Below are positions 39,146 through 59,714 of a stretch of 64,000 nt of DNA, piece after piece (the first letter of the stretch is position 1; each line of letters opens with the position of its first letter). The translations under genes were made by a program, and so were the position numbers. This DNA comes from Candidatus Wolfebacteria bacterium RIFOXYD12_FULL_48_21 (GTDB taxonomy: Bacteria; Patescibacteriota; Minisyncoccia; UBA6257; UBA9933). Where the stretch lies: assembly GCA_001793945.1 (NCBI GenBank), contig MGIW01000003.1:65630-129629 (forward strand), read 5' to 3'. Under the pieces are notes generated by a model. That model saw only the letters and a list, made by a program, of their open reading frames with translations. It made no database searches and was not told the origin of the DNA.

Positions 39146-39278
39146 GCCTCCGTTATGTGTCATTCCTGCGAAAGCAGGGATCTATGTATTGTCATCCCGG
39201 GCGAAGTGGAACGGAGTCGAGGGATCTGCTACAGATTCCTCGGCTCCGCAGAGTACCGCTCCACTCGGAATGACATAC
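39146..39278. repeat. MITE-like repeat cluster
   Basis: TGTCATTCCTGCGAAAGCAGGGATC, TGTCATCCCGGGCGAAGTGGAACGGAGTCGAGGGATCTG, CTCGGAATGACAT. Confidence 0.6.
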
Positions 39279-40997: not shown

Positions 40998-41098
40998 ATT
41001 TGTCATCCCGAGCGAATCCGTCAGCCGACGGAGGAGCCGAGGGATCTGCTACAGATTCCTCGGCTACGCGGAGTACCGTTTCGCTCGGAATGACAAGC
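40998..41098. repeat. MITE-like repeat
   Basis: TGTCATCCCGAGCGAATCCGTCAGCCGACGGAGGAGCCGAGGGATCTG ... CTCGGAATGACAA. Confidence 0.6.
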
Positions 41099-43130: not shown

Positions 43131-43173
43131 TCATCATCTCGCCGCTCGCGGCAATTTAATTATTGCTATTTTG

Positions 43174-43296: not shown

Positions 43297-43390
43297 TTGT
43301 CATTCCGATCCGTCAACTGACGGACGAGGAATCTGCCTTCAGATCCCTCGGCTCCTCCGCCAGCTGGCGGATTCACTCGGGATGACAATG
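43297..43390. repeat. MITE-like repeat
   Basis: TGTCATTCCGATCCGTCAACTGACGGACGAGGAATCTG ... CACTCGGGATGACAA. Confidence 0.6.
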
Positions 43391-44747: not shown

Positions 44748-46145
44748 TTATTTTTTCTTATCTACCTTAATTTGCAATTCCTTCAACTGCTTTTCCGTGA
44801 ACTCCGATGGGGCGTCGACCATCAGGTCGCGGCCATCGCCGGTCTTCGGGAATGCGATGACTTCGCGAATGTTCGGTTCGTTCTGCAGGATCATGACGAT
44901 GCGGTCGATGCCCGGGGCGATGCCGCCATGGGGCGGAGTGCCCAGCTTGAACGCATCAAGCATGTGCCCATAATCGGCTTGGATCTTTTCGTCTGAATAG
45001 CCCATGATCTCCAACACCTTATGTAACGCTTCAGGGCGATGGTTGCGGATACTTCCTCCACCGATCTCGTATCCGTTCAATACAATGTCGTATTGATCGG
45101 CCAATATCTCGGCGATGCTTTCCTTGTTCATCAGCGAATCCATGTGCTCAGGTTGCGGAGCGGAAAACGGATTGTGCGTAAAGGTCCACCCGCCCGTCTC
45201 TTCGTCCTTTTCAAAAAACGGGAAATCGATGACCCAACAGAATGCGAGCAGGTCCGGATCGTTCTTGTCTTCACGAATGTCGGGCCTGTCGTTGCCGTAC
45301 TTTTCCATCGATTCCTTGTAGGTGATTCGCGGGAACGGTTTTTGCTGGATGCGCTTGTTCGGATAGTGCGTTTCAACAAGCTTGATGAGCATGTCTTCGA
45401 TGATGTCCATTACTTCCCCGCTTTTGGCAAAGCTCATTTCCATATCGAGCTGAGTGAACTCCGGCTGGCGGTCACCACGGGTGTCTTCATCGCGGAAACA
45501 GCGGGCTATTTGAAAGTATCGTTCCAACCCGGCCACCATCAGCAACTGCTTATATTGCTGGGGCGATTGCGGCAATGCATAACACTTACCCGGATAGATG
45601 CGCGACGGCACCAAGTAATCGCGGGAGCCCTCCGGTGTGGCCTTGCCGAGCGCCGGGGTTTCCACTTCGATAAAGTCGAGCTCGGACAAATAATTTCTGA
45701 AAAAGTTCACCACCTTTGCGCGCATCTTCAAGTTTTTTTCCATGCGCTCGCGCCGCAGATCGAGCGGGCGATATTTCATGCGGGCCTCTTCGCTGATCTC
45801 CCGGCCATCGGTATCGATCGGGATCGGCAGCTCTTCCGCTTTGTTCAATATTTCCAATCCTTCGGCAAGTATTTCATATGCCCCGAATTCCTGATCGGCG
45901 TTTACCATGTTGTCGGGCCTCTTGTTCACCTTGCCCGTCAAACGCACCACCCATTCGGCGCGCAATTCACTTGCCGCCTCGTGCACTTCCTGCGGTTTCG
46001 GCAAAAAAACAACCTGCACCAGACCACTTCTATCTTTCAGGTCGATAAAAATTAGCTTCCCGTGGTCGCGACGGTTTCGCACCCACCCTTCAAGCACGAC
46101 AGACTCGCCCTCTTTGGCGATCATTTCTCTAATAAGTGTCCGCAT
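44748..46145 (-). CDS. aspS: Aspartate--tRNA ligase, short archaeal/eukaryal-like form without GAD insertion (probably non-discriminating)
   Basis: N-terminal OB-fold and class II motifs 1-3 (FRDEDTRGDRQPEFTQLD, GGGSIR). 465 aa. gatCA is present in the window. Confidence 0.9.
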   Translation of the reverse strand: MRTLIREMIAKEGESVVLEGWVRNRRDHGKLIFIDLKDRSGLVQVVFLPKPQEVHEAASELRAEWVVRLTGKVNKRPDNMVNADQEFGAYEILAEGLEILNKAEELPIPIDTDGREISEEARMKYRPLDLRRERMEKNLKMRAKVVNFFRNYLSELDFIEVETPALGKATPEGSRDYLVPSRIYPGKCYALPQSPQQYKQLLMVAGLERYFQIARCFRDEDTRGDRQPEFTQLDMEMSFAKSGEVMDIIEDMLIKLVETHYPNKRIQQKPFPRITYKESMEKYGNDRPDIREDKNDPDLLAFCWVIDFPFFEKDEETGGWTFTHNPFSAPQPEHMDSLMNKESIAEILADQYDIVLNGYEIGGGSIRNHRPEALHKVLEIMGYSDEKIQADYGHMLDAFKLGTPPHGGIAPGIDRIVMILQNEPNIREVIAFPKTGDGRDLMVDAPSEFTEKQLKELQIKVDKKK

Positions 46146-46184
46146 AGTGGTACAACATTAGCATTTTTGCACCTCCTTCGCAAC

Positions 46185-46218
46185 AAAAAAAATCGCACTC
46201 ACCTTTCGATGAGTGCGG
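46185..46218 (-). terminator. Intrinsic terminator ending the cassette transcription unit, upstream of the aspS promoter/RBS
   Basis: Minus strand CGCACTCATCGAAAGGTGAGTGCGATTTTTTTTG. Confidence 0.7.
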
Positions 46219-46224
46219 TTACTA

Positions 46225-46297
46225 CGCTTCGTCAATTTTTTAGATAGTGTGGTTTTATTCCACCTTTAGCGTCGGTTATGCGTGCTCAAGCCCGACG
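46225..46297 (-). repeat. Cassette 3' trailer module, copy 1 (palindrome CGTCGG-N16-CCGACG plus GGTGG..CCAC stem plus A-run with TTGACG)
   Basis: CGCTTCGTCAATTTTTTAGATAGTGTGGTTTTATTCCACCTTTAGCGTCGGTTATGCGTGCTCAAGCCCGACG. ~85-90% identical to the copies at 46573-46646, 49686-49761 and 49981-50051. Confidence 0.65.
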
Positions 46298-46304
46298 AGT
46301 ACCG

Positions 46305-46451
46305 CTACCCGTTGTAATCAACGATTAGCGGACATGTTACTATCGCCACAACCCCCACCAGGATTACAGCTGGGATCCAATGCCCGAACCCGAGTATTGA
46401 TATCCCCATACAAACCGCCATGGTAGCGGCCCACTGATATATAATTTTCAT
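46305..46451 (-). CDS. 48-aa hydrophobic small peptide (cassette ORF-1; type I toxin-like or bacteriocin-like)
   Basis: MKIIYQWAATMAVCMGISILGFGHWIPAVILVGVVAIVTCPLIVDYNG. Strong RBS GGAGGcagtATG immediately preceded by the hairpin GCCCGGcaaCCGGGC. The ORF-track 80-aa version includes leader sequence. Confidence 0.4.
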   Translation of the reverse strand: MKIIYQWAATMAVCMGISILGFGHWIPAVILVGVVAIVTCPLIVDYNG

Positions 46452-46452
46452 A

Positions 46453-46570
46453 CTGCCTCCTCGCCCGGTTGCCGGGCAATGTTTTTTTAAATGTGCACTT
46501 CCTTCGAATTCCCGTTCTGTGAACCGAAACTCGATGAGAAGGGGCAAGCGATAAAACTATCACTTGCCCA
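46453..46570 (-). promoter_or_regulatory. Conserved cassette leader module, copy 1: TTGACG, GGGCAAG hairpin, CGGTTCACAGAACGGGAATTCGAAGG box, RBS-adjacent hairpin GCCCGGcaaCCGGGC, GGAGG
   Basis: Read on minus strand. Repeated with the same order at 46949-47070 (partial), 49581-49671, 49862-49940 (degenerate) and 50150-50290 (degenerate). Confidence 0.55.
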
Positions 46571-46572
46571 CA

Positions 46573-46646
46573 CGCTTCGTCAATTTTTTAAACAGTGTGG
46601 TTTTCTTCCACCTTTAGCGTCGGTTATGCGTTCTCAAGCCCGACGG
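46573..46646 (-). repeat. Cassette 3' trailer module, copy 2
   Basis: CGCTTCGTCAATTTTTTAAACAGTGTGGTTTTCTTCCACCTTTAGCGTCGGTTATGCGTTCTCAAGCCCGACGG. Confidence 0.65.
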
Positions 46647-46666
46647 TGCAACCACTATCACAAGGG

Positions 46667-46948
46667 TCAGATCCTTCTTACCCTTGAGACATAGCACAGC
46701 TCTACTCTTCTTTCTCCGCAGAGGCACTCCCCTGTGTCGAACACGACACGCCCTTCCTCCGTGAGCTTTCTAAACTTGCCGGTGCATGTTCTGCACCGTA
46801 GCCTCCCCGGCTCTTCCGGGTCCCTCTCTACCTCGATTTTCTCCCCCGGCAGGAGGTTTAGCTTACGAACCTCCTCCGCCATCTTTATAGACTTCTGGCG
46901 ATAGGGCCTGTCAGAAAACAAACTCAAGAACTTTTGAGATCCTTTCAT
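46667..46948 (-). CDS. 93-aa basic small protein with CxxC...CxC zinc-ribbon-like motif (cassette ORF-2)
   Basis: Same conserved RBS/leader hairpin as ORF-1. Followed by the conserved 3' trailer module. Confidence 0.4.
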   Translation of the reverse strand: MKGSQKFLSLFSDRPYRQKSIKMAEEVRKLNLLPGEKIEVERDPEEPGRLRCRTCTGKFRKLTEEGRVVFDTGECLCGERRVELCYVSRVRRI

Positions 46949-47035
46949 ACTGCCTCCTCGCCCGTTTACCGGGCAATGTTTTTGGAAAGATCAAATGTTA
47001 GGTTGGTTGTTTTTTACACTTCCATCCTTACACCC

Positions 47036-47068
47036 TTACAATACCAGTATTCACAAAATGTGTCAACT
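47036..47068 (-). promoter_or_regulatory. Putative sigma70-type promoter for the cassette ORF-2/ORF-1 transcription unit
   Basis: Minus strand TTGACA-17 nt-TATTGT, ~80 nt upstream of the ORF-2 ATG. Divergent from the TrmB promoter at 47125-47155. Confidence 0.4.
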
Positions 47069-47124
47069 ATTCCGTCAAACTCTTAGTTTACTTTTCTTTC
47101 CTTTCTTATTTTTCCGCATAAACA

Positions 47125-47155
47125 TTGACAAAATCCTTGCTTTTGGTAGTATATA
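47125..47155 (+). promoter_or_regulatory. Putative promoter of TrmB-family regulator gene
   Basis: TTGACA-17 nt-AGTATA(TA). Confidence 0.45.
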
Positions 47156-47227
47156 AAAAACGGTCCTTTCGTCGACATATTCATATAATTACATTTATAT
47201 CATCTCTAATTAATACATTCCCTTTGT

Positions 47228-47292
47228 GTCATCCCCGCGAAGGCGGGGATCCAGTATTATATGGATTCCCGCCTTCGCGGGAATGACAAGAT
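47228..47292. repeat. MITE-like repeat
   Basis: TGTCATCCCCGCGAAGGCGGGGATCCAG...GGATTCCCGCCTTCGCGGGAATGACAA. Confidence 0.65.
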
Positions 47293-47331
47293 TCGGAACT
47301 GTTTAATTAGACTTGGTATTGTATCGCTGCC

Positions 47332-48060
47332 ATGCTTACAAAAAACCTGCAAAAGATCGGGCTCAATGAAAAGGAGGCAAAGGTCTATCTCGCTTCCCTT
47401 GAATTGGGGGAAGCCAATATTCAGCGTATCGCCAAAAAGGCGGGCATCAAGCGCACCACCGCCTACGATATTCTTGCCTCCCTTAAAGAAAAGGGCCTTA
47501 TCAGTACGGTTAAAAAAGATAAACGCTTCTATTATTATGCCGAAAACCCTTCATCATTGATGGCCGATCTGGAGGAAAAGCAGGAGGCACTAAAGAAGAT
47601 CATGCCCGAGCTTCTTTCGTTCGATAACCTCTTGGACCGCAAACCAAAGATCCGCTATTTCGAAGGAGCGCAGGGACTGAAAGAAGTCTATATGGACACA
47701 CTCGGCTATCCGGACCGGGAAATGCTTTCGTGGGTCGCCGAAGAAGCGTTTTATGATTTTGATGTTGATTTTCTTGAATCCCGTTATCACCCCACACGGA
47801 TCAAGAAAAAAATCTGGACCCGCGAGATCGCATCTGATGACCCTGCAACACGCGCCTATCAGGCGAAAGACGCAAGCAGTCTGCGCAAAACAAAGCTGCT
47901 TCCTTCGAAGCCGTTTCCCTTGGATGTTGGCATCAGCATCTATGGCGACAACAAGGTAGGAATCGTTTCCTTCAAAGAAGAGCTTGGTCTTATCATCGAA
48001 AGCGACAAGATCCACAACACGCTCAAAAGCATGTTTGAGTTCTTTTGGGAAAAGCTTTGA
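47332..48060 (+). CDS. TrmB-family transcriptional regulator (N-terminal wHTH plus C-terminal domain), paralog 1
   Basis: N-terminus IGLNEKEAKVYLASLELGEANIQRIAKKAGIKRTTAYDILASLKEKGLIS matches the TrmB HTH. Plus-strand promoter TTGACA-17-AGTATA at 47125-47155. Confidence 0.7.
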   Translation: MLTKNLQKIGLNEKEAKVYLASLELGEANIQRIAKKAGIKRTTAYDILASLKEKGLISTVKKDKRFYYYAENPSSLMADLEEKQEALKKIMPELLSFDNLLDRKPKIRYFEGAQGLKEVYMDTLGYPDREMLSWVAEEAFYDFDVDFLESRYHPTRIKKKIWTREIASDDPATRAYQAKDASSLRKTKLLPSKPFPLDVGISIYGDNKVGIVSFKEELGLIIESDKIHNTLKSMFEFFWEKL

Positions 48061-48111
48061 CCCCTCTGAATTACAAAACCCCCCTTGTCTTGCCGTAAAC
48101 CTGACTATTGT

Positions 48112-48235
48112 CATTCCGAGCCCATTCGTCCGCCAGCTGGCGGATCAGGGTAAACCGTAGTCGAGGAATCCGCAGTGCTTTTACTACAGATCCCTCGGCT
48201 CCGTTTCACTCCACTCGGGATGACATGCCGAGTTT
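48112..48235. repeat. MITE-like repeat (last copy in window; none downstream of 48.3 kb)
   Basis: TGTCATTCCGAGCCCATTCGTCCGCCAGCTGGCGGATCAGGG ... CTCGGGATGACAT. Confidence 0.6.
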
Positions 48236-48261
48236 CGTAATTTAAAGTTGATAAGAATAAA

Positions 48262-48300
48262 AAAAGGCGGAAAACTTTTTAGGTTTTCCGCCTCGTACTA
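48262..48300 (-). terminator. Intrinsic terminator after REC/Zn-ribbon gene
   Basis: Minus strand GAGGCGGAAAACCTAAAAAAGTTTTCCGCCTTTTTTTATT. Confidence 0.7.
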
Positions 48301-48453
48301 CTCTACCTTTCTTGGTGGCTCCTCTGATCATCTGTCGCTTTTATTGCGTCCTTTTAGGACCTTTATTACACAACTCCGACGATCTCCATTGCCTTCCCCC
48401 GGCGCGGTTGCGTTTACCCGGGGCATACTTTCCAAGAGTGCAGACCTAGACCG

Positions 48454-49134
48454 TTATTCTTCCTGTTCGCCACTGGTGAGGCGATTCAGGATATCTTTCC
48501 AGTCTTTTCCCTTCTCGGCGTAGTCCACACCGGTAGCGTGGCAGGTGTAGCAATCGTATGTGCTGTCGTTAGCACGCCGACACTTGCCCGTGCCGCCACA
48601 TTCCCGGCAAGGCCCTTCGGTGCCCGTTATGCCAACCCTTTTTACATGATTGGTAAACAGCGCCTTGGCGCCTGCAACCGGGAACACTCCACGGTCCATG
48701 CGGTCGAGCATGGCGCTCGCCGGATGACTGTGGTGATCCATGTCGGTAACAACCGCCACGAACTTCGCGCCTTCCAGTGCCGCATCAATGGCGAGCGCCC
48801 AGCCGATCGGCATTTCTGTGCCGACATACTGCAGGCCATTGCCCCCTTGGGTTTTCCTACCCGCGGGCATCAGCAAATCAGAGAGCACCGCATCCCAGTA
48901 GGGAAGCTTACACTCTTCCATGGCCTTCGCCCACACTTCGCCGCACCAGCCATAGCCTGCCGCTTCTGCCTCTGCCTTGAGTCGCAGAAGTTTTTCCCTG
49001 TCACACGGCTTTTCCCGCACGAGCTCTACCGCTTCGTCGTGGCTTCCCACCACGGTAAGCTCATGCTCGTGGCCGAGCGTCTGGTAGGCTGCCTTCCGGT
49101 GAGACGGGTTGTCATCGATAACGAGGATCTTCAT
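48454..49134 (-). CDS. Atypical receiver (REC)-like domain protein with C-terminal Cys-rich zinc-ribbon, no recognisable output domain
   Basis: MKILVIDDNPSHRKAAYQTLG...DAVLSDLLMP is receiver-like with insertions. C-terminus CRECGGTGKCRRANDSTYDCYTCHATG. GC ~58%. RBS aggagaaagaccATG lies 20 nt after the upstream ORF. Confidence 0.5.
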   Translation of the reverse strand: MKILVIDDNPSHRKAAYQTLGHEHELTVVGSHDEAVELVREKPCDREKLLRLKAEAEAAGYGWCGEVWAKAMEECKLPYWDAVLSDLLMPAGRKTQGGNGLQYVGTEMPIGWALAIDAALEGAKFVAVVTDMDHHSHPASAMLDRMDRGVFPVAGAKALFTNHVKRVGITGTEGPCRECGGTGKCRRANDSTYDCYTCHATGVDYAEKGKDWKDILNRLTSGEQEE

Positions 49135-49154
49135 GGTCTTTCTCCTGAGTTGGT

Positions 49155-49514
49155 TTACGCCAGCCCTTTGCCGGCGATGTGATTCGTAAATCTCTTCATC
49201 TCTTCTCCATCTTTCCCGATGAAGGAGATAGTGAATACTGAAAGCAGCTCCTTGAAACGCTCGTTCTTGCCAAGCGCTTCCGCGCTCTTTTCAATATTAT
49301 TCCCCTCACCTACTCCGATGGCGAACAATATTACCCTTTTCCCGGCCAGCAGGAGGTCGAGCGCTTCGTTGACATTGGTGCAAAGCACCTCGTCTGCAGA
49401 AGCCATATCCTCAACAACCCTGCCCAGCGCGCAGGCAATCAGCACGCCGAGAGTATTTTTTATCGGACCGTCCTCGGTGTTTATATACACCTTTTTCCTT
49501 TTTAAGCCGTCCAT
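49155..49514 (-). CDS. Hypothetical 119-aa protein (first gene of cassette operon with the REC/Zn-ribbon protein)
   Basis: RBS ggaggcgaagg. Preceded by the conserved leader module. The ORF-track 167-aa version reads through the leader. Confidence 0.4.
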   Translation of the reverse strand: MDGLKRKKVYINTEDGPIKNTLGVLIACALGRVVEDMASADEVLCTNVNEALDLLLAGKRVILFAIGVGEGNNIEKSAEALGKNERFKELLSVFTISFIGKDGEEMKRFTNHIAGKGLA

Positions 49515-49580
49515 TCTTCCTTCGCCTCCATTAAATATCCCGTAATACGGGCTGCGCACGATCGCGCTAATTTTTAAAAG

Positions 49581-49671
49581 TACCACTCCCTTCGAATTCC
49601 CGTTCTGTGAACCGAAACTCGATAAGGAGGGCAAGTGAATTCTCCAACTAGATTTCACTTGCCCGACCCTC
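49581..49671 (-). promoter_or_regulatory. Conserved cassette leader module, copy 3 (upstream of the 119-aa ORF / REC operon)
   Basis: CCCTTCGAATTCCCGTTCTGTGAACCGAAACTCGATAAGGAGGGCAAGTGAAttctccaactagaTTTCACTTGCCC. Confidence 0.55.
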
Positions 49672-49685
49672 CGTCGAGGGCGCCA

Positions 49686-49761
49686 CGCTTCATCAATTTT
49701 TTACTGTGGTTGTGGTTTTCTTCCACGATTACCGTCGGTTATGCGCGCGCAAGCCCGACGG
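49686..49761 (-). repeat. Cassette 3' trailer module, copy 3 (belongs to an ORF-less decayed cassette)
   Basis: CGCTTCATCAATTTTTTACTGTGGTTGTGGTTTTCTTCCACGATTACCGTCGGTTATGCGCGCGCAAGCCCGACGG. The cassette upstream has only an RBS followed by a 4-codon ORF (MPPM). Confidence 0.6.
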
Positions 49762-49861
49762 TGAAGTTTTTGAGAAAAACTTCACCAAAAACTCTTTTAC
49801 ATGGGTGGCATAGCCTCTCCTTGTTTGTTTGCCCTTTCGGACCGATTCCTTCAAAACCATG

Positions 49862-49940
49862 TAAAACCTCTACGGGTCCCCGTTCTTACGAACCGGAATC
49901 CGATAGAAGGGGCAAGTGATGATATCACCGCTTGCCCACC
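49862..49940 (-). repeat. Degenerate cassette leader/hairpin module, copy 4
   Basis: GTCCCCGTTCTTACGAACCGGAATCCGATAGAAGGGGCAAGTGATGATATCACCGCTTGCCC. Confidence 0.5.
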
Positions 49941-49980
49941 TTTCCACTGGCACATCATGCACCGCCGGAAAGGGTAGTAA

Positions 49981-50051
49981 CGCCGTCAATTTTTTAGATA
50001 GTGTGGTTTTATTCCACCTTTAGCGTCGGTTGCGTTACCATTGCCCGACGG
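49981..50051 (-). repeat. Cassette 3' trailer module, copy 4
   Basis: CGCCGTCAATTTTTTAGATAGTGTGGTTTTATTCCACCTTTAGCGTCGGTTGCGTTACCATTGCCCGACGG. Confidence 0.6.
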
Positions 50052-50149
50052 GAACTTTGCTCAAAATCTTGGGCAAAATCCCGATTCCTCTCCCCTCTCG
50101 TGGCCATGTTGGGTCGTGGCCAGCGAATAAGGGGTCAACCTCCTTTTCC

Positions 50150-50290
50150 CCGATATTTTATCTGTCGGCCTCGGGTGGCTGTTATTTTTCCAAGGTGCTT
50201 TGCAAGGATGCTTTCCTTTCCTTCATCCTTACGCCCCCACAATAACTTTTTTATGTCAACCAGTCAATAATTTTGCCAAATTCTTTTTTT
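50150..50290 (-). repeat. Degenerate copy of the cassette-2 upstream region (RBS hairpin plus promoter-like segment), no intact ORF
   Basis: CTTCATCCTTACGCCCCCACAATAAC and TGTCAACCAGTCAATAATTTTGCC parallel CTTCCATCCTTACACCCTTACAATACC and TGTGTCAACTATTCCGTCAAAC at 46997-47070. Confidence 0.4.
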
Positions 50291-50481
50291 CGCTTTATGT
50301 ATAACCTCATTTATATAGCATAAATACTATATAAATTGACTAACTTTAGTAAAAATAAAAAATGACCCTTTCGGCGTCATAATGTTCCCATGCGTAATTT
50401 TATCGATCTTTCACTCAAAATAGCGCCCGTATGCACAGCTCATTACCAAGCGCTATCCTCTACCCGCCCCCTCTTTTATGG

Positions 50482-51201
50482 CTACTTCCCTAAAAATACC
50501 TTTCCTAAAATATCGCTTTTTGCTATTACATCCGCATCGCCACCAACAGCAATCTTTCCTTTGTCCAAAACATACGCCGTTTGGGCGATATCCAAGATCG
50601 ATCGTATGTTATGCTCCACCACTATGATTGCCGTGTGTTTAACTTCGTTGATCTCGCGGATCTTTTCAAATACTTCTTTTACGATCTTTGGCGCAAGCCC
50701 GAGTGATGGCTCATCGAGCAATAACACCTTGGGGTCGATCATCAATCCACGCGCGAGCGCCACCATCTGCTGCTCCCCTCCGGAAAGCATCCCCGATTTC
50801 ATATTCCGCTTGCGTTTCAATACAGGGAACAGTTCCATTACATCGTGCTTGCGCGCATGTCGCTCGTCTTTATCCTTTACAATTATCCCGCCAATGTCGA
50901 GATTTTCCTCGACTGTCAGGCTTTGAAACACGCGACGGCCTTGCGGCACAAATGCGACTCCCTTGCGCGCCATCTTGTGTGGAACCGGAATAACCTTCTC
51001 GCCTCTCCATATAATATGGCCCGCGTGCAATGGCGTGATGCCAAAGATGGCCTTCAGTACCGTCGATTTCCCCGCGCCGTTTGGGCCCATGAGCGCAACA
51101 AGCTCACCCTCATGAATGTCGATATCAACGCCATCAAGGGCATGCACGCCGCCATAATGAACGGACACATTCTTTAGTTGCAGTAGGGGTTCGTTTTGCA
51201 T
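50482..51201 (-). CDS. livF: Branched-chain amino acid ABC transporter ATP-binding protein (LivF-like)
   Basis: Walker A GPNGAGKST, signature LSGGEQQMVALARGL, Walker B LLLDEPS. Start assumed at MQNEPLL. Confidence 0.8.
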   Translation of the reverse strand: MQNEPLLQLKNVSVHYGGVHALDGVDIDIHEGELVALMGPNGAGKSTVLKAIFGITPLHAGHIIWRGEKVIPVPHKMARKGVAFVPQGRRVFQSLTVEENLDIGGIIVKDKDERHARKHDVMELFPVLKRKRNMKSGMLSGGEQQMVALARGLMIDPKVLLLDEPSLGLAPKIVKEVFEKIREINEVKHTAIIVVEHNIRSILDIAQTAYVLDKGKIAVGGDADVIAKSDILGKVFLGK

Positions 51202-51208
51202 ATCTATT

Positions 51209-51305
51209 GACAAAAACTGGTAATCATCTATACTAATAGTACATTATGCTCCAGCAATGGAGTTCCGAGAAACCCCTTCGAGAGAAGGGGTTTCGTTTTA
51301 TACGA
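51209..51305 (+). ncRNA. Candidate small RNA: promoter TTGACA-16/17-TATACT followed ~40 nt later by an intrinsic terminator
   Basis: TTGACAaaaactggtaatcatcTATACT ... GAAACCCCTTCGAGAGAAGGGGTTTCGTTTTAT. Divergent from livF. Could alternatively encode a ~32-aa peptide (MLQQWSSEKPLREKGFRFIRAPLASLLYPHNR). Confidence 0.3.
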
Positions 51306-51749
51306 GCTCCTTTAGCTTCACTTTTATACCCCCATAATCGGTAGTATTCAATTTACCTATTTTCCTAATAAATCGCTTATTACTGATCGCTCGCAGTTGT
51401 GACAGAATTATTACATTCTGTTCTCCTTGGGTATTAGTAAATGGGAAATAATATTTACCTTCCTTCATTTTCGTTTATTTCTACTCCGATATTTTGCCCT
51501 AAACTTGCCCACCAAATTTGCCTTTCCCGAGGAAAACTTCTTATATCTGAAGCATGTATATGTATTTTTGACTTAGTCTAATGCGCAAATACTTCGACAA
51601 GTTCTTTTGTAATTTTTATACTCATAAAATAAATCGACTCTTCGCCTTTATTCTTTCTCAATCTTACCAAATTCCATTCTCTTTATAAACTGATTGGATT
51701 TTGTTAACCTTTATAAAATGGCTTCGGCTCTCCCTTGCGTGAGTAGGGG

Positions 51750-51790
51750 TAACAAAAAACAGCCCTCTACGAAGGGCCGTTTTTTATGGT
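51750..51790 (-). terminator. Intrinsic terminator after substrate-binding protein gene
   Basis: Minus strand AAAAAACGGCCCTTCGTAGAGGGCTGTTTTTTGTT. Confidence 0.7.
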
Positions 51791-51805
51791 TTGAACATAG
51801 TGCGG

Positions 51806-52954
51806 TTATTTTCCTACAAATACCGGCATCATATTTTCCAGTCTAAACAATCGCACAAGGATCCCGCTCACTCGTCCATCTTCTTTCATTGTGAGGTTTC
51901 CCGTCACGCCTTTGAAGTTTTCGACATTCTTCATTGCGGTTATCTTCTGATTCAACTGTCCCTTTTTCGTGCTTGCGGTCACTTTCGGCAGCACCTCGGT
52001 GATCAATACCTTGGCCGAGTCGTATGCCTGGTCGCTGGCGACGAACACAAAGGGGGTCCTGCCATACTTCGCCTTAAAGTCATTGTGAAACTTTACAGCA
52101 ACCTGGTTCCCTTCGATTGGAGCATAGAACGAGAAGTGGATTCCATCAATCGCCTTGCCCGCAGCCGCCTGAATGGACGGGGTCGTGGCAACGGTAGGAA
52201 TCGTGAGATAATTCTTTCCTATGTTCAAGTTCTTTGCCTCCTTGATCGCGATTCCGATTTCGTCATAGCCAAGGAATACGATCGCATCCTTATCCTTGAA
52301 CTTCAGTAGCGATGTTTTGAAGTCGGTCGTTCCCGGCTTATAGCTCTCTACCTGCACTGAAGCCGCATTTCCTATTCTAACTACGAATTCATCGGAAACA
52401 GACTGCATGAAGTTATCGACGGTGGAATGCAAGATTCCGATATTCTTATAACCCTGTTCCTTTGCATAATCAGCGATTACATCGGCTAAGTCATTTGTTT
52501 CCTTGGCGATGCAAAATATATTTTCCGGAAGATTGGCGAGTGCCTGATCACAATCCAACGAGTCTACTATCAATACATTGTCTCGCTGCGCCCGTTCGGC
52601 CAAGGCCATGACGCCGCCATAGGTGGACATGATGATCGTATCGACACCATCGATGGTTACCATCTTTTCATATGCACTGATCGCTTTTGCCGTATCGTAT
52701 TGATCATCCTCCACTACGAGCTTTATTTGTCGGCCGTTTATGCCTCCGCTTGCGTTTGCTTCATCAACCGCGAGTTGTATCGATTTGGAAGCTTCTTCTC
52801 CCAATATCGCCACATCTCCCGTTAGTGGGCCGATATAGCCGAGCATATACGCCCCTTCCACCTGTGCGCCGTTACCCCATTTAAACAGATATCCGGCAGC
52901 TATTACCGCTATGACCACTGCAATTCCGATAATGCTATTTTTTTTGTCATTCAT
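51806..52954 (-). CDS. ABC transporter substrate-binding protein (LivJ/branched-chain amino acid binding family, type I periplasmic binding fold)
   Basis: Signal-anchor N-terminus and family-wide similarity to Leu/Ile/Val-binding proteins. Terminator at 51750-51790. Confidence 0.75.
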   Translation of the reverse strand: MNDKKNSIIGIAVVIAVIAAGYLFKWGNGAQVEGAYMLGYIGPLTGDVAILGEEASKSIQLAVDEANASGGINGRQIKLVVEDDQYDTAKAISAYEKMVTIDGVDTIIMSTYGGVMALAERAQRDNVLIVDSLDCDQALANLPENIFCIAKETNDLADVIADYAKEQGYKNIGILHSTVDNFMQSVSDEFVVRIGNAASVQVESYKPGTTDFKTSLLKFKDKDAIVFLGYDEIGIAIKEAKNLNIGKNYLTIPTVATTPSIQAAAGKAIDGIHFSFYAPIEGNQVAVKFHNDFKAKYGRTPFVFVASDQAYDSAKVLITEVLPKVTASTKKGQLNQKITAMKNVENFKGVTGNLTMKEDGRVSGILVRLFRLENMMPVFVGK

Positions 52955-53170
52955 GTAATTTTTATTATTTTATTATTTTTCTCACGCGCGTTCACTTGTT
53001 AATCATGATAACAACATTATGCGGTTATATTGTCAAACAGTCAACAAATGTATTTCTAATTTTTCTTATCCAACCCCCCACTCTCCTTTAATATGCCTTT
53101 AATATTGACTTTTTTTGCTGTTTTGCTACTATTAAAATAGTGACGGAATTATCGTTATTTATATATACTT

Positions 53171-53905
53171 ATGGTCATACAACAACTCCAAGACGCCGGT
53201 CTAACAAAAAAAGAGGCTCAAATCTACCTTGCCCTATTAGAGTTGGGGGAGGCAAATATCGCTCAGATAACAAAGAAATCGGGCATTAAACGATCGACTG
53301 TCTATGAAATGCTCGATATTCTGAAGAAAATGGGCCTTGCAAGCCAGGGTCGCCTTAAAAAACGGACCGTTTTTTATGCAGAAAGCCCAAAAAAGATCCC
53401 CGAGGCGCTGGATGCAAAAAAACGCGCCATAGAAGAGGCAATGCCCGAATTGCTGTCCATGATGAATCTATTGGATAAAAAGCCCAAGATAAAATATTTT
53501 GACGGCATTGCGGGTTTACGGGAAGTATTTGAAGACACCCTAAGATATCCGGACCAGGAAATACTCACCCTATTCCCCTACCCATACATAAACCTGGGTG
53601 AAGATTATTTTCAGGGACATTATTTGCCGGAACGAGTAAAGCGGAAGATATGGTCGCGCGCCATTATCCCCGATACTCCGGAGAATAGGGTCTTTGCCAA
53701 GTATCTCCAAGAAAATGCCATCACAACGACGCGATTCTCCTCCGATGCAGCCTTTAAACTATTCGACATCGAGATCAAGATCTATGGCGGAAATAAGCTC
53801 GGGATCATTTCCTATAAAGAAGACCTCGGGTTGATCATAGAGAGCACAAAGGTATCCGAAGGCCTTAGGGCCATATTTGAAACAATGTGGAACTTACTAA
53901 AATAA
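53171..53905 (+). CDS. TrmB-family transcriptional regulator, paralog 2
   Basis: AGLTKKEAQIYLALLELGEANIAQITKKSGIKRSTVYEMLDIL is colinear with paralog 1. Terminator at 53905-53945. Confidence 0.7.
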   Translation: MVIQQLQDAGLTKKEAQIYLALLELGEANIAQITKKSGIKRSTVYEMLDILKKMGLASQGRLKKRTVFYAESPKKIPEALDAKKRAIEEAMPELLSMMNLLDKKPKIKYFDGIAGLREVFEDTLRYPDQEILTLFPYPYINLGEDYFQGHYLPERVKRKIWSRAIIPDTPENRVFAKYLQENAITTTRFSSDAAFKLFDIEIKIYGGNKLGIISYKEDLGLIIESTKVSEGLRAIFETMWNLLK

Positions 53906-53945
53906 GCCAGCCAAAAAATCCGCCGAAGCGGATTTTTTTAGTTAT
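53905..53945. terminator. Bidirectional terminator between trmB paralog 2 and SBP gene
   Basis: AAAAAATCCGCCGAAGCGGATTTTTTTAG. Confidence 0.7.
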
Positions 53946-53951
53946 TACTTA

Positions 53952-55094
53952 TTACATACCGATGGTCTGTCCATTCTTTATGACCTTCACTGTAAACCCA
54001 ATGTCTGAATTACCACTCTGATCAAGAGAATATGTTCCCATAAATCCGTTGTAATTCTTCACATTCGTCGTCAGCCAATCACGCACCTTTGCGCTGTCGT
54101 CTCCAACTGTTGCGATTGCCGTTGCGAGCAGCTGCATATCGTCATAGGTAGCCGCACTGTGGAATGGCACCACTGGATCTTTGCCGTACTTTGTCTTATA
54201 TGCGGCGAAGAAATCCCTAAGCCCTGCATTGTTTGCGTTGTATGACGGATCTGCGAAATGGATCCCCTCGAACGATCCGAGTATCTTTTTTACATCGGCG
54301 TTCAAAACCAGTAGGAAATCGGAGAATACCGGGGCCTTTACACCGATAGTATTCATCTGTTTGATTAAGTTTCCTCCACTGATACCCGTCTGTGACGCCA
54401 CCAGTATCGCATCCAGATTCTCCGCCTTAATCTTGCTCGCGATTGTCCTGAAGTCTGTTGTGTTTGGCTGGAATTCTTCTGCAATGACCACGGTCATGCC
54501 CAGCTCCTGCGCTTTCTGCTCAAAACTCTTTTTAATGTCTATTGTGTATTCGGTCGTTTCAGCAATCACACCCACCTTCTTATATCCTTTCTTTGCCATT
54601 GCTTCTGCAATGTTGCGCCCTGCCAAAAGATCTGAGTTGGCTGTTCTAAAGATATACTCACCCGCTTCATCTACATTTCTTCCGCCGGTGACCGGCGTCA
54701 TCAGAACTACCTTGTTCTGATTGGCGATCGGCGCTGCCGCAATCGTGCCATTACTACACATACCTCCAATGATATACTTTACCTTGTCAGTATTTACGAG
54801 CTTCGATACGGCCGACAATCCAGTCTTGCTGTCGCATTTTGCGTCCTCGACGACCAATTGAATCTGTCGTCCATTGATGCCTCCCTTTGCGTTAATCTCA
54901 TCTGCTGCTAATTGAGCAGTGTTTGCAATATTTTCACCAAGTGCCGCGAGATCACCGCTCATAAATGTTGAAACTCCGATCTTGATCGGTCCAGTTTCTA
55001 CCGATATATCCTTTTTATTTGCCAATATATATCCTCCCAATATCACCGCTATCACGGCAACAATACCGAAAACCAATTTTGTATTTTTTGTCAT
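53952..55094 (-). CDS. ABC transporter substrate-binding protein (LivJ-like), paralog
   Basis: Same fold and family as 51806..52954. Signal anchor MTKNTKLVFGIVAVIAVILGGYILA. Confidence 0.75.
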   Translation of the reverse strand: MTKNTKLVFGIVAVIAVILGGYILANKKDISVETGPIKIGVSTFMSGDLAALGENIANTAQLAADEINAKGGINGRQIQLVVEDAKCDSKTGLSAVSKLVNTDKVKYIIGGMCSNGTIAAAPIANQNKVVLMTPVTGGRNVDEAGEYIFRTANSDLLAGRNIAEAMAKKGYKKVGVIAETTEYTIDIKKSFEQKAQELGMTVVIAEEFQPNTTDFRTIASKIKAENLDAILVASQTGISGGNLIKQMNTIGVKAPVFSDFLLVLNADVKKILGSFEGIHFADPSYNANNAGLRDFFAAYKTKYGKDPVVPFHSAATYDDMQLLATAIATVGDDSAKVRDWLTTNVKNYNGFMGTYSLDQSGNSDIGFTVKVIKNGQTIGM

Positions 55095-55276
55095 GTTTAT
55101 AATTATTTCCTCTTAATTAATAATTTTAGCCTGGCGTAAGGTAACGCAATTAAGATAAATCCTTACTTTTATCTTATTACTCGACTATTATGCCATTATA
55201 TGACATAATAACAATAGATTTCTTGTATTTTTTTAAATTATGTCCTACATTGATACTATAATTATAAAATTTAAAA

Positions 55277-56299
55277 ATGAATGTAACAGAACTTGACAAA
55301 AAAATACTTTTTCAACTTGATATGGATGGGCGCGCCAGCTTCTCTGAAATAGCCCGTTCTATTGGCTCCACCCCTCAGGTCGTCAAGTATCATTACGAAC
55401 AATTGATGGGGCGTGGCATTATCAAGCACTTTTGGGCATACATCGACTACGACAAGGCCGATTATTCATTTTTCTGGGGCTACTGGTTCAAATTTGCCGG
55501 CCTTACCAAGGTGATCGAGGATGAGATGTATACGCGCCTGAACGCAGACCCCAATGTTCCAATCATCATGCGCGCAGACGGATATGCGGATGTCCAACTT
55601 GCATTCATCAGTAAAGACATCTTCAACCACAACGAAATGTTGCAGAATTTTTTTACCCGTTACGGACAATATGTGGTTTCTACCGATATTTTTGTTGGCC
55701 TCGGATTTATAAAATTCCCCAGAATGTATTTAGTAGGGGAGGAAAACAAACCGCAAACAAGTGCTCTGTCTGGTGGGACCACTAAAAAGATCCGCCTCAC
55801 CGAAATCGATCGGAAAATGATGTCGCTCCTTCTTATAGACGGCAGAATGGAATTCACAAAAATTGCTAATATTTTAGGCGTGTCCGTCGGGTTGGTACAT
55901 AAACGCTATGCGAAACTCAGGGATACGGGCGTCATCACCAAAATATCCTTCACGATCGACTACCCCAAAATAGGCCTTCTCCTCTACCGCGTCTGCTTCA
56001 AGATCACGCAGTTCGATCACAAGCGCATTGATGACCTCTATGAGTTTTGCTCCCTCCATCCTAATATCATCGATTACGTAAAGGGCATGGGTAGTTGGGA
56101 GCTGCTTCTGGATATCGAGATAGAAGATCGTGCGTCCCTTCGCAACCTCATCCGCGAGCTAAAAACTAAATTCAAGGATATCTTTCAGCGGGTGGAGATA
56201 AACGAGATATACCAGATGGATAAATTCACGCAGATGGCTATGGAATATCCGGAGATGGCCAAATATGCCCGCCCTTCTTCTTTGATCATGTACGATTAA
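55277..56299 (+). CDS. Tandem (duplicated) Lrp/AsnC-family transcriptional regulator
   Basis: Two successive HTH_AsnC-like segments (LDKKILFQLDMDGRASFSEIARSIG... and IDRKMMSLLLIDGRMEFTKIANILG...), each followed by a RAM-like domain. 340 aa. Confidence 0.55.
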   Translation: MNVTELDKKILFQLDMDGRASFSEIARSIGSTPQVVKYHYEQLMGRGIIKHFWAYIDYDKADYSFFWGYWFKFAGLTKVIEDEMYTRLNADPNVPIIMRADGYADVQLAFISKDIFNHNEMLQNFFTRYGQYVVSTDIFVGLGFIKFPRMYLVGEENKPQTSALSGGTTKKIRLTEIDRKMMSLLLIDGRMEFTKIANILGVSVGLVHKRYAKLRDTGVITKISFTIDYPKIGLLLYRVCFKITQFDHKRIDDLYEFCSLHPNIIDYVKGMGSWELLLDIEIEDRASLRNLIRELKTKFKDIFQRVEINEIYQMDKFTQMAMEYPEMAKYARPSSLIMYD

Positions 56300-56319
56300 T
56301 CTCTGCTTTCTATCGTATA

Positions 56320-56355
56320 AAAAATGCCCCGCCGTATTGGCGGGGCGCATTACCT
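56320..56355. terminator. Bidirectional terminator between AsnC-like gene and hypothetical gene
   Basis: AAAAAATGCCCCGCCGTATTGGCGGGGCGCATT. Confidence 0.65.
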
Positions 56356-56467
56356 CCTTTTTTTGCTTATTCCTTATTCCATTTTCGTGCTTCGCGCTCT
56401 ACTCCCCCCAAATACGCCTCGATGACTTCCCGTCTTACAAACACTTCTTCTGGCTTGTCTTCGCCCC

Positions 56468-57418
56468 TTACTTCTCTTCCAAGTGCTCCTTTAACAGCAT
56501 TTCCATCGGACAGAGCCCGTTAAGACTTTCATGGGGAAAATAATTCCACGCATCGTTCAGTAGTCGAAAACCCTCTTCGTCGAAAAATCCTGTCTTGTCG
56601 AGTAATGCGTTGAAATTATGGTGCGCATCATCCTCTTCATAAATCATATGCTCTATGTCTTCGAATTTCATCGACACGCTCCTTTCTTTTAGTAGCCGCG
56701 AAATAGCTTCCCGCAACAGCTTCTGTTGTGGAAGCACATTTGTCTCATGGAAGTAGCTTTTATATGCTTCCCTGCCGGCAGCATGCGATTTCTTACTACC
56801 CCTTCCTTTTACCGATAGCATACCTTTTTCTTCCCGTATAAATTCCTCAAATATATTCTCATGCAGTTCGCCTCGGAGCAAGTGGTCATTTAGTAATACC
56901 TGTAAACTCTTATACACGCTCGGGGGTAGGCTGGCAATATATTTGTATCTCGAATACTCTTTGCGATAATTCCAGTCGAGGAGCTGTGACACCTTGTATG
57001 CAAATTCACAAAACCGCTTCCTATCGCGTTCTATTTCTTCATCCGATATATTCTTCATCCATGAACTTCTCGTTATGTGCAGAGTCATATCGAGCCAATC
57101 AACTGCGTTGAGAAGCGCCTGCCGTATCTTTCCCGATGGATTCTGAATTTGCCTAATTACGAACTCCTCACATTCCTTGAAATAATCACTCCCAAGATAT
57201 ATAAACGCCCACTTTACTGTATTGATAAAATATGTCTGATGATCAATATCTTTTATTTGATCAAATGTTTTCATCTCGCCGATAAAAGCCCATAGCTCTT
57301 TCTTGAGTGCGTTTCTATCAAGCGTGCGGTCATTGGCTACTTTTGCAACCTGCTTTTGCGCTTCTTTTACCGCTGCCTTGTCGCCGGTTTTTATTATCTT
57401 TATTAATTGGGAAATCAT
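56468..57418 (-). CDS. Hypothetical 316-aa protein adjacent to AbiE module
   Basis: AT-rich, helical, no recognisable motifs. Terminator at 56320-56355. Confidence 0.35.
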   Translation of the reverse strand: MISQLIKIIKTGDKAAVKEAQKQVAKVANDRTLDRNALKKELWAFIGEMKTFDQIKDIDHQTYFINTVKWAFIYLGSDYFKECEEFVIRQIQNPSGKIRQALLNAVDWLDMTLHITRSSWMKNISDEEIERDRKRFCEFAYKVSQLLDWNYRKEYSRYKYIASLPPSVYKSLQVLLNDHLLRGELHENIFEEFIREEKGMLSVKGRGSKKSHAAGREAYKSYFHETNVLPQQKLLREAISRLLKERSVSMKFEDIEHMIYEEDDAHHNFNALLDKTGFFDEEGFRLLNDAWNYFPHESLNGLCPMEMLLKEHLEEK

Positions 57419-57442
57419 GATTCAATTCTTGCAATTGAGTAT

Positions 57443-58715: not shown

Positions 58716-58832
58716 ATAATATACCTCTGAAGTAAGCCTTTATCTTACTTCCAGTATAAATTATTGCTATTTACTTGTCAAATGCATTCCTCATTCCTTA
58801 TTGCTTACTCCCTTTTGCCTATTACCCACTCC

Positions 58833-59591: not shown

Positions 59592-59714
59592 ATAAATTAG
59601 TAGTTAGTAGATGGCAGTAAGTAATAAGCAAATAGGGATTCTGTTTTTTATTACTATATCCACTATCCTTTTCCCTTTCCCTCTTCCTTTTTTCTTATTT
59701 TTTTTCCTTATTTC

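Follow-up and report, generated by a model that had tools for sequence, protein, structure and literature searches.

A tandem array of small open reading frames (ORFs) embedded in repeated modules was analysed in a stretch of 64,000 nucleotides (nt) of Candidatus Wolfebacteria bacterium RIFOXYD12_FULL_48_21 (contig MGIW01000003.1, positions 65,630 to 129,629; the window below). Exact protein matches assign it to metagenome-assembled genomes from Rifle groundwater, the representative of its species being Candidatus Wolfebacteria RIFOXYB1_FULL_54_12. Array elements are read on the minus strand at 46180-50300, and coordinates are positions in the window unless another locus is named. The interpretation to which we lean, with somewhat better than even confidence, is that the modules act at the RNA level, where they would process, insulate and stabilise each cistron, and that their shared sequence also permits exchange of the enclosed ORFs as cassettes by homologous recombination. 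It is based on the repeats themselves, on their structures and the covariation within them, on recurrence of one element before ORFs across the phylum, on hammerhead ribozymes in relatives and on a swap of cargo between strains; to these it would add cleavage, a nuclease, a stabilising role, control by TrmB and a route of recombination. The loci used for comparison (30 at species level and four metagenomic) were fetched through homologues of a 226-amino-acid (aa) protein encoded in the array, its anchor.

Arrangement of the array

Two operons are present in the region, driven by near-identical promoters (P1 and P2) and adjoining a TrmB gene that lies between them on the opposite strand. The first runs from P1 through an ORF-less leader, a trailer, a two-hairpin element (hpC-hpD), a Shine-Dalgarno sequence (SD) with four codons, a second trailer and a second hpC-hpD to ORF119, the receiver/zinc-ribbon gene of the anchor protein, a hairpin with SD and seven codons, and a terminator. 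The second runs from P2 through a hairpin with ribosome-binding site (RBS), ORF93, a trailer, hpC-hpD, another hairpin with RBS, ORF48 and a last trailer to a terminator, behind which aspS follows. The repeat set thus comprises four trailers of about 75 nt, three copies of hpC-hpD, two leaders in which a hairpin (hpE) is joined to GGAGG, and the two promoters. Patterns for trailer, hpC-hpD and hpE were each absent from 100 shuffled versions of the window (0 matches) and from the rest of its 64 kb, and the module RNAs folded more stably than shuffled versions (z = -3.9 and -6.7).

An earlier interpretation, made from the letters alone (the sequence-only reading), had described every unit as the same five parts in the same order around a different ORF. 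Its ORF coordinates were borne out (48, 93, 119 and 226 aa), as was its statement that the conserved part includes promoter and RBS: the modules hold SD, ATG and promoters. The five-part description was overstated, because all five parts are present only in the unit before ORF48. The ORF93 unit begins at the promoter, with neither trailer nor hpC-hpD ahead of ORF93, and the last trailer (U4) has nothing but the terminator behind it. A hairpin directly abutting a GGAGG RBS, also attributed to every unit, was found by pattern match in two copies of GCCCGG..CCGGGC with GAGGAGG-N4-ATG, namely the hpE hairpins ahead of the ATG of ORF93 (46946-46976, minus strand) and of ORF48 (46449-46479, minus strand); the ORF119 unit has a pre-RBS hairpin of a different kind.

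P1 (50239-50267, minus strand) reads TTGACT-17-TATTGT and its homologue P2 (47038-47066, minus strand) TTGACA-17-TATTGT with a TG. Both were placed by consensus scan and alignment, P1 with P2 and with the promoters of loci L019 and L058, and have TTGAC-N17-TATTGT..GTAAGGATG in common. The back-to-back promoter pair proposed near the TrmB gene was recovered as consensus matches only, P2 (47066-47038) standing opposite a plus-strand promoter-like site TTGACA-16-TAGTAT at 47125-47152. The P2 operon ends in an intrinsic terminator at 46186-46217 (minus strand; hairpin 46194-46217 plus U-run), directly upstream of aspS as had been claimed, and the P1 operon in another at 48264-48294 (minus strand; stem of 12 base pairs (bp) plus T-run).

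The scenario that the sequence-only reading had set against itself, in which the modules are ordinary members of a genome-wide family of miniature inverted-repeat transposable elements (MITEs) or another dispersed repeat, was rejected: no copies lie outside the locus in the 64-kb window, and only this locus was matched in a 220-kb contig of the same species. A true MITE-like palindrome of another family (TGTCATCCCCGCGAAGGCGGGGATCCA / TGGATTCCCGCCTTCGCGGGAATGACA) lies at 47201-47319, between the TrmB gene and P2, and is absent there in the strain locus L012; related copies lie at about 39213-39275, 41000-41095 and 43325-43388. The element gave a weak match only, to the FtrB small RNA (23 bits, E = 1.7).

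The two-hairpin element

The GGGCAAG hairpin and the CGGTTCACAG box are two halves of one element, hpC-hpD. The GGGCAAG hairpin with the CGGTTCACAGAACGGGAATTCGAAGG box occurs in three copies, two exact and a third (49864-49936) diverged, in agreement with the repetition reported for them. hpC is a GC-rich hairpin of variable sequence; hpD, interrupted at its centre by a mismatch or a bulged U, is a hairpin of 40-49 nt and about 18-20 bp whose base is pyrimidine-rich on the 5' side (CCUUCUCAU, AUCUUUAU, UCCCUUUCA) and purine-rich on the 3' side and is followed by a single-stranded tract of U and then A. The gap between hpC and hpD was 0 nt in all 24 copies compared (8 organisms). The three window copies, at 49864-49936 (U1), 49584-49663 (U2, leader of ORF119) and 46496-46569 (U3) on the minus strand, all fit this architecture of a variable GC-rich hairpin abutting a longer one with mismatch or bulge.

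The element was found ahead of ORFs in about 12 Patescibacteria organisms, with several copies per locus in L020, L021/L024, L025, L026, L027, L028, L031, L034, L036 and L040. Among 23 copies it mostly lies 7-77 nt upstream of an SD-led start codon (farther upstream in a few) and often just 6-22 nt behind the preceding stop. It stands on the coding strand, ahead of an SD-led ORF, in a locus with TrmB and receiver/zinc-ribbon genes, and the window has all of these features.

Pairing is kept across subtypes while sequence changes. When window-type copies were aligned with L021-type copies, 93.9% of cells were paired and both sides had changed in 18 of the 26 pairs; pairing as good was seen in 0 of 500 shuffles, and slid controls reached at most 55%. 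The commonest (L027-type) subtype gave 92.2% of cells paired, with double changes at 9 pairs. RNAalifold run on a mixed MAFFT alignment recovered hpC only, because the subtypes are out of register there. A covariance model built from six L021 copies only (R2) placed the three window copies first, second and third among its hits between 40 and 56 kb of the window with filters off (U2, 30.5 bits, E = 6e-7; U1, 20.1 bits, E = 6e-4; U3, 14.9 bits, E = 0.018), and also detected copies in L026-L028, L031 and L040. The model built from the commonest subtype only (R1) misses the window copies, which marks them as a divergent subtype. The helices are rich in G-U pairs, and reverse-strand hits scored 27-40 bits as against 52-102 bits in sense; together these indicate that the constrained molecule is the sense RNA. 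The loops are variable and almost no unpaired bases are conserved, a pattern that would argue against self-cleavage of hpC-hpD. In the commonest hpD type, which has no Rfam match, the 3' strand can pair alternatively, as judged by eye, with a downstream GGGA..UCCC / CUUUGACAAA segment; window-type copies lack this alternative pairing.

The trailer

Four trailer copies were confirmed where the sequence-only reading had placed them, by pattern match and alignment, at 49978-50051 (U1), 49687-49760 (U2), 46572-46646 (U3) and 46224-46297 (U4), all on the minus strand. Their identity to a reference copy was 68-95% ungapped and 83-95% by gapped BLAST (about 85-90% had been claimed). Each consists of hairpin A (CGUCGG/CCGACG), hairpin B (GUGG/CCAC) and an A-run, and in U1 a candidate pseudoknot of 7-9 bp is formed by GUAACGC/GCGUUAC. 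From the Wolfebacteria strains, L019 and an unrelated AT-rich organism (L055/L058), 14 distinct variants were gathered, over which both hairpins and their loops barely change. In 14 of 14, pairing over 4-9 bp is possible between the 3' side of loop A (..NNCGC) and the tail that follows UUGACGAA (GCGNN..), the fourth pair being A-U, U-A or G-U according to lineage. The pairing is suggestive of a pseudoknot with hairpin B and the A-run inside it, on evidence from three to four lineages; since the hairpins are invariant, the covariation is carried by the pseudoknot alone.

The trailer lies directly 3' of an ORF, and what comes next is an intrinsic terminator (window U4, L012, L019 and both L058 units) or the next hpC-hpD. 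Each L058 unit has a single cistron (in the order promoter, 5'-terminal hairpin, hairpin/RBS, ORF, trailer, terminator) and is followed by convergent genes only, which argues against a classical 5' riboswitch. Distribution of the trailer was narrow by nhmmer; a metagenome scan returned 6 stretches only, 4 of them from the same species, and neither trailer nor hpD patterns had a match in two viral-contig scans. Its conserved loops and predicted pseudoknot leave room for self-cleavage, for which it may be regarded as a candidate. A different RNA motif (..GGAGCCCAAGGGAAGCAGAGCCCUCCGGUUGACACACCGAGACAAAAUGUCG..) is repeated behind ORFs of L021 (4373-4458, 5488-5573 and 6681-6766), where it stands in for the trailer, and also occurs in L024; it has no Rfam match and lies directly ahead of a hammerhead twice in L021.

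The conservation of both elements bears on the proposal that a small gene with its untranslated regions (UTRs) recently underwent local tandem duplications and left the repeats behind as neutral remains, the ORFs having later diverged or been lost. Restriction of the repeats to one locus, the existence of ORF-less copies and the 87-95% identity between two copies of each part would be expected from it, but the ORFs between the repeats are mutually unrelated, the two-hairpin architecture is kept with compensatory changes where the anchor protein is only 50-60% identical, and the trailer sequence is almost unchanged in organisms whose anchor proteins are 29-68% identical. The covariation between species largely refutes neutral duplication, which we consider improbable.

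A weightier competitor, although clearly the less probable one, takes the modules for cis-regulatory sensors that work without cleavage: trailer and/or hpC-hpD would bind a ligand or protein (such as the receiver/zinc-ribbon protein or ORF119), this would switch the following cistron at termination or translation, and all cargo would answer one signal. The near-invariant loops and covarying pseudoknot of the trailer are aptamer-like and stand directly before terminators, hpC-hpD always has an RBS just downstream, two regulator-like proteins are always encoded in the locus, and the alternative pairing gives the commonest hpD type a three-strand switch layout. Yet the trailer is located 3' of ORFs, and where it ends the two L058 units nothing is left downstream to regulate; the SD is not sequestered by hpD or hpE in predicted folds, window-type copies are without the alternative pairing, and the hammerheads of sister loci point to cleavage. 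Nor was any riboswitch family matched. Rfam 15 at gathering threshold returned tRNA only over the whole window, and within the region, searched at E <= 10, the best hits had E > 1; the sole riboswitch hit, SAM-II, was rejected (19.2 bits against a threshold of 44, E = 3.9, in trailer copy U2 only and 3' of ORFs). A tRNA-like identity was likewise discarded, ARAGORN finding tRNA-Pro at 43173 only. The same search of 24 related loci gave only hammerheads, one DUF3800-V RNA and tRNAs/tmRNA. The suggestion in the sequence-only reading of leader-controlled, identically regulated genes, or of an undescribed system, was judged closer to the truth than its integron interpretation.

Hammerhead ribozymes in sister loci

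Two type III hammerheads are present in L021 (49.9 bits, above the Rfam threshold, and 44.7 bits) and one in L019 (36.9 bits, E = 3e-6), the closest relative outside the species (anchor protein 68% identical); the core was also found in L020, L049 and L051. The L019 hammerhead lies 27 nt upstream of a window-like GC-hairpin, GAGGAGG and ATG, and the 55-aa hydrophobic ORF that this leader precedes is followed by a window-like trailer and terminator. In L021, GUUCUUUCAA comes behind hammerheads and behind hpD alike. In the window itself no hammerhead was detected at gathering score or at E <= 10, and no core by regular expression. Clustered hammerheads that flank single genes of varying identity have been proposed to cut long transcripts into gene-length mRNAs, and cleavage in vitro was demonstrated for hammerheads of such clusters (Perreault et al. 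2011, PMC3088659).

Further observations were made in these loci. At about 4690-4740 and 6790-6830 of L021, long ORF-free spacers hold extra hammerhead-like cores ('AAGCUGAUGAGA') that fail a simple stem II test. Two hammerheads in L020 (3989-4040 and 4386-4437) flank some 350 nt without an ORF, a stretch that may correspond to a decayed cassette or to a non-coding RNA released by excision. L019 carries, on the minus strand at 9737-9835, a DUF3800-V RNA that scores above threshold (56.5 bits) and adjoins a DUF3800 gene about 4 kb from the unit with hammerhead and trailer; DUF3800 motifs are themselves unexplained RNAs tied to such neighbourhoods.

Cargo and its replacement between strains

ORF48 (46305-46451, minus strand) encodes a small hydrophobic protein whose C-terminal motif T-C/S-P-x-V/I-x-D/E-Y-N/S is, by eye, also present in the 55-aa ORF of L019. 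ORF93 (46667-46948, minus strand) encodes a Cys-rich orphan protein according to protein searches, and ORF119 (49155-49514, minus strand) a protein without family match, homologues of which lie directly upstream of the receiver/zinc-ribbon gene in L020 and L025. The cargo proteins had no match in Pfam, PHROGs or PADLOC.

Variable cargo within constant modules, as had been proposed, was supported by comparison with two strains about 95% identical to that of the window (L012 and L059), whose flanks are 94-98% identical to the window. The differing segment begins at the third codon behind the P2 hairpin/RBS and reaches up to the last trailer's first base. Here the window carries ORF93, a trailer, hpC-hpD, a hairpin-RBS and ORF48; the strains have an unrelated ORF of 99 (L012) or 93 (L059) aa precisely between hairpin-RBS-ATGAAAG and trailer, so that the breakpoints are ATGAAAG and the trailer start. 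The 99-aa product is hydrophobic (membrane) and has no similarity to ORF93 or ORF48. As deletion between internal repeats cannot yield the 99-aa ORF, a true replacement took place. ORF93 and the 99-aa ORF have no homologues outside the species cluster among 5.8 billion proteins, and the cassettes are therefore not traceable to other genomes.

L059 carries the same allele as L012, differing in the number of copies of a 9-nt tandem repeat (GTGGGCCTA, coding VGL) within the ORF (4 in L012, 12300-12340; 2 in L059, 1205-1222), so that the length of the alternative cargo protein varies within the population. In L023 (9913-10710, against window 46300-47100) the P2-unit ORFs match those of the window at about 99% identity (3 of 282 nt differing in ORF93 and 1 of 147 nt in ORF48, too few to judge selection), as against 95% for the receiver gene and an overall 93% for the aspS/ndk flank, which hints at a recent recombinational sweep of the P2 unit.

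An exact replacement of this kind might also be expected if the units were sites at which DNA recombines in a site-specific cassette system, integron-like or novel, with hpD or trailer folding as single-stranded DNA in the manner of attC. In its favour, differing small ORFs are arrayed with conserved imperfect palindromes between them, some units have no ORF, and hpD, with its conserved base, variable centre and bulge or mismatch, bears a superficial resemblance to attC. Against this, no recombinase of the tyrosine or serine type is among the called genes within about 10 kb on the strain contigs or in the 30 related loci (Pfam notes); promoter, SD and start codon lie inside the units, orientation is always with transcription, and pairs are kept on the sense strand only, through G-U; the swap breakpoints lie inside long shared homology and are explained by ordinary homologous recombination. 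The sequence-only reading had likened the array to an integron cassette array or a cluster of attC sites lacking integrase (CALIN) while remarking that intI and GTTRRRY cores were missing. The remark was upheld, no integrase domain being found among called genes within about 10 kb and the hairpin bases reading CCUUCUCAUC/GAAGG and CGUCGG/CCGACG and not RYYYAAC/GTTRRRY; the likeness was rejected on the same grounds, together with the sense-strand G-U pairing and the hammerheads in relatives. We give site-specific recombination very little credence.

The nature of the cargo bears on a further suggestion, that the array is a type I toxin-antitoxin or bacteriocin/immunity system in which the hydrophobic ORFs are toxins under structured UTRs and antisense RNAs. 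ORF48, the 99-aa ORF of L012 and the 55-aa ORF of L019 are indeed small and hydrophobic, with strong RBSs and structured UTRs, and hpE is terminator-like on the opposite strand. But no promoter-like site is placed so as to drive an antisense RNA over ORF48 or its trailer, the remaining cargo (ORF93, ORF119 and the receiver protein) is soluble, no PADLOC, PHROG or Pfam family is matched, and the receiver gene is flanked by the same modules in L058 and L021. We consider the idea, which the sequence-only reading had also raised, highly unlikely.

Leaders and decayed units

The P1 leader (50139-50232, minus strand) has a 5'-terminal hairpin AAGGAUG..CAUCCUU at about 50204-50230, a CCCGA..UCGGG hairpin at 50148-50175 and the SD AAGGAGG at 50139-50145. 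It aligns with leaders of L058 that end in GGAGGAAGTATG and an ORF; the window instead has GGAGGTTGACCCC, and the start codon is gone. Homology to leaders that drive ORFs, combined with loss of the ATG, supports the idea of a decayed cassette. Two further remnants were read from the sequence: an SD (GGAGAGG) with a 4-codon ORF, MPPM* (49797-49820, minus strand; ORF 49797-49811), and, as a possible third decayed unit, a hairpin CCCCGG..CCGGGG with SD and 7-codon ORF (48370-48425, minus strand). That the ORF-less units are decayed cassettes, as had been asserted for at least three of them, is plausible on this evidence.

Read on the plus strand, the hpE hairpins (46463-46487 and 46960-46984) have a T-run behind them and score as intrinsic terminators; in that direction they could halt antisense transcription into the leaders.

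Anchor protein and locus type

The anchor gene (48454-49134, minus strand) encodes a receiver-like domain with a C-terminal CxxCxGxG zinc ribbon. Its 306 homologues all come from Patescibacteria wherever the source organism is named. The AlphaFold2 model (predicted local distance difference test score, pLDDT, 93.7) matched receiver-domain folds at probability 0.99-1.0 and has the zinc ribbon at its C-terminus; matches to Response_reg and Anti-TRAP were weak, and sequence searches of the Protein Data Bank gave only weak matches to receivers and to DnaJ/anti-TRAP zinc fingers. The TrmB-family regulator proposed by the sequence-only reading (47332-48060, plus strand, divergent from P2) was confirmed (PF01978, E = 8e-18).

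In most of the 30 loci a TrmB gene divergently adjoins the receiver/zinc-ribbon gene, and in the loci examined small ORFs without Pfam, PHROG or PADLOC match lie behind the latter; many related loci have direct repeats of their own in the spacers. Judged by gene content, the array is a member of a Patescibacteria-wide locus type made up of TrmB, the receiver/zinc-ribbon protein and small ORFs. In L039 (5800-16200) seven TrmB paralogues and two receiver/zinc-ribbon genes lie within 10 kb, separated by five copies of a terminator-like module (GGCAGUACC..GCUUGGAGGAGCUUUCCGCACAAAACUGCC-U run), a local expansion of the regulator pair.

Neighbouring features

Downstream of the array, aspS (ATG at 46145) is without an SD of its own; a strong GGAGG stands at about 46172-46176 (area 46129-46180), and an ATG at 46164 opens an 11-codon ORF, MLMLYHYADTY*, that overlaps the aspS start out of frame (the mini-ORF of L012 has 4 codons, MLLL*). 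The arrangement looks like translational coupling through a leader mini-ORF. Upstream of P1, the block 50500-60000 is richer in AT (GC content 0.41-0.44, as against about 0.50) and carries ABC and LivK-type transport genes, a TrmB paralogue (53171-53905), an AsnC-type helix-turn-helix gene and an AbiEii gene. Beyond the block, at about 62919-63680, there is a third TrmB paralogue. In L012 and L019, ComEC and a gene of the metallo-beta-lactamase fold precede the array in place of this block, which marks the block as an insertion or rearrangement.

Proposed mechanism

In the model that we favour, each cistron would be packaged by modular structured RNA elements: at the 5' end, either a promoter with 5'-terminal hairpin or, between cistrons, hpC-hpD; next, the GC hairpin hpE abutting a strong SD and ATGAA; then the ORF; and finally the trailer, followed by an intrinsic terminator or the next hpC-hpD. 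The two-hairpin element would be an endonucleolytic processing and insulating site, the counterpart of the hammerheads in sister loci, a role for which it has the length of a two-turn substrate of double-strand RNases and an AU-rich single strand alongside. By analogy, the cut would most probably be made by a host RNase specific for double strands or AU, with self-cleavage the less likely route. After the cut, the upstream message would end in trailer and hpC, and the downstream message would open with a protective hairpin before a free SD; in the commonest subtype the freed 3' strand of hpD might refold with the downstream GGGA..UCCC segment (a pairing drawn by eye) into a new 5' hairpin. The trailer would serve as a 3'-UTR element that sets or stabilises the 3' end or binds a factor. 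As P1 and P2 share their promoter and the first transcribed hairpin, they are probably co-regulated by the adjacent TrmB. Because every cistron has the same flanks, homologous recombination can replace, duplicate or delete the enclosed ORF, and would thereby yield strain-specific cargo and ORF-less remnants.

Several points weigh against this model. The processing step is drawn by analogy with hammerhead loci, and with hpC-hpD almost entirely Watson-Crick helix with variable loops there is little room for a catalytic core, so that a protein nuclease must be assumed; no RNase III signature was found in the window, a 64-kb search that is uninformative for the whole genome. L021 has a hammerhead and hpC-hpD within one long spacer, and the two are thus not strict alternatives. 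Window-type copies are without the GUUCUUU tract and the mini-hairpin of the commonest type, the model of which misses them. Covariation in the trailer is limited to the pseudoknot and comes from 3-4 lineages, and its highly conserved loops would suit binding of a ligand or protein as well as a stabilising role. The cargo swap is known from two alleles in one population.

A more far-reaching version, rather doubtful at present, would make the array part of a plug-and-play system for small genes, in which phylum-wide interchangeable RNA modules (hammerheads, hpC-hpD and at least two 3'-UTR motifs), working with the ever-present pair of TrmB and receiver/zinc-ribbon protein, give each inserted ORF its own processed and stabilised message; at least one non-hammerhead module would then be a new class of catalytic or ligand-binding RNA, the trailer being the best candidate.

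Comparison with known systems

The closest known arrangement is that of hammerhead clusters flanking variable genes, where structured RNA is likewise repeated between cistrons of inconstant identity and cutting into gene-length mRNAs has been proposed (PMC3088659). Sister loci L019, L020, L021, L049 and L051 carry such type III hammerheads. The window differs in having no hammerhead core and, in its stead, a two-hairpin motif and a predicted pseudoknotted trailer, both without Rfam match; its locus is chromosomal and syntenic, not a prophage, and a conserved 3'-UTR element also belongs to the flanks.

Among RNA motifs, DUF3800-I, drum, skipping-rope and FuFi-1 are highly conserved, stand before intrinsic terminators and are tied to neighbouring genes (Weinberg et al. 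2017, PMC5737381). The trailer resembles them in being compact, conserved, placed before a Rho-independent terminator and not in a 5' UTR, and linked to a gene neighbourhood; unlike them it lies on the same strand directly behind an ORF, may have hpC-hpD in place of the terminator and matches none of those Rfam families. Gene neighbourhoods of the hammerhead type are where earlier searches found new ribozyme classes (PMC5737381), and hpC-hpD and the trailer, lying in such a neighbourhood, are therefore concrete and cheap candidates for cleavage and ligand assays. Neither was found in Rfam 15 or in the literature searched, which contains no account of Patescibacteria ribozymes or of arrays of this kind in the phylum. 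Operons punctuated by ribozymes have been described before, as have processing hairpins between cistrons; the apparent novelties are the hpC-hpD family, the pseudoknotted trailer, the complete packaging of each cistron and the cassette-like turnover of genes in a bacterium of the candidate phyla radiation (CPR).

With integrons and CALINs the array shares variable small ORFs between conserved imperfect palindromes, empty units and differences from strain to strain. It differs in the absence of IntI and of R/L core sites from the window array, in elements that include a promoter, SD and ATG and whose constraint is on the sense RNA, and in an exchange explained by homologous recombination in long shared flanks. 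Like UTR modules around each cistron would offer tiny genomes a simple route to variation in gene content that needs no integrase, and the locus of TrmB and receiver/zinc-ribbon protein with its orphan small proteins forms a tractable unit of study in CPR bacteria.

Intercistronic hairpins processed by RNase III or RNase E and stabilising 3' hairpins are known from the phage T7 early operon, from rpsO-pnp and from repetitive extragenic palindromes and bacterial interspersed mosaic elements (REP/BIME). The mismatch hairpin of about 18-20 bp between cistrons beside an AU-rich single strand, the GC hairpin at the upstream 3' end and the hairpin 5' of the RBS are similar to these; the window element differs in being conserved in the phylum, tied to the TrmB and receiver/zinc-ribbon locus and paired with a trailer of predicted pseudoknot structure. 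Synthetic insulators of the RiboJ type consist of a ribozyme and a hairpin upstream of the RBS, and the L019 unit has the same order (hammerhead, spacer, GC hairpin abutting the SD), with hpC-hpD in the place of the ribozyme in the window. Both layouts would give a context-independent 5' UTR. Unlike RiboJ, the present layout is natural and repeated for each cistron, and its insulating function is inferred only; as a natural order of processing element, hairpin, RBS, ORF and 3' element, it may become a tool for synthetic biology.

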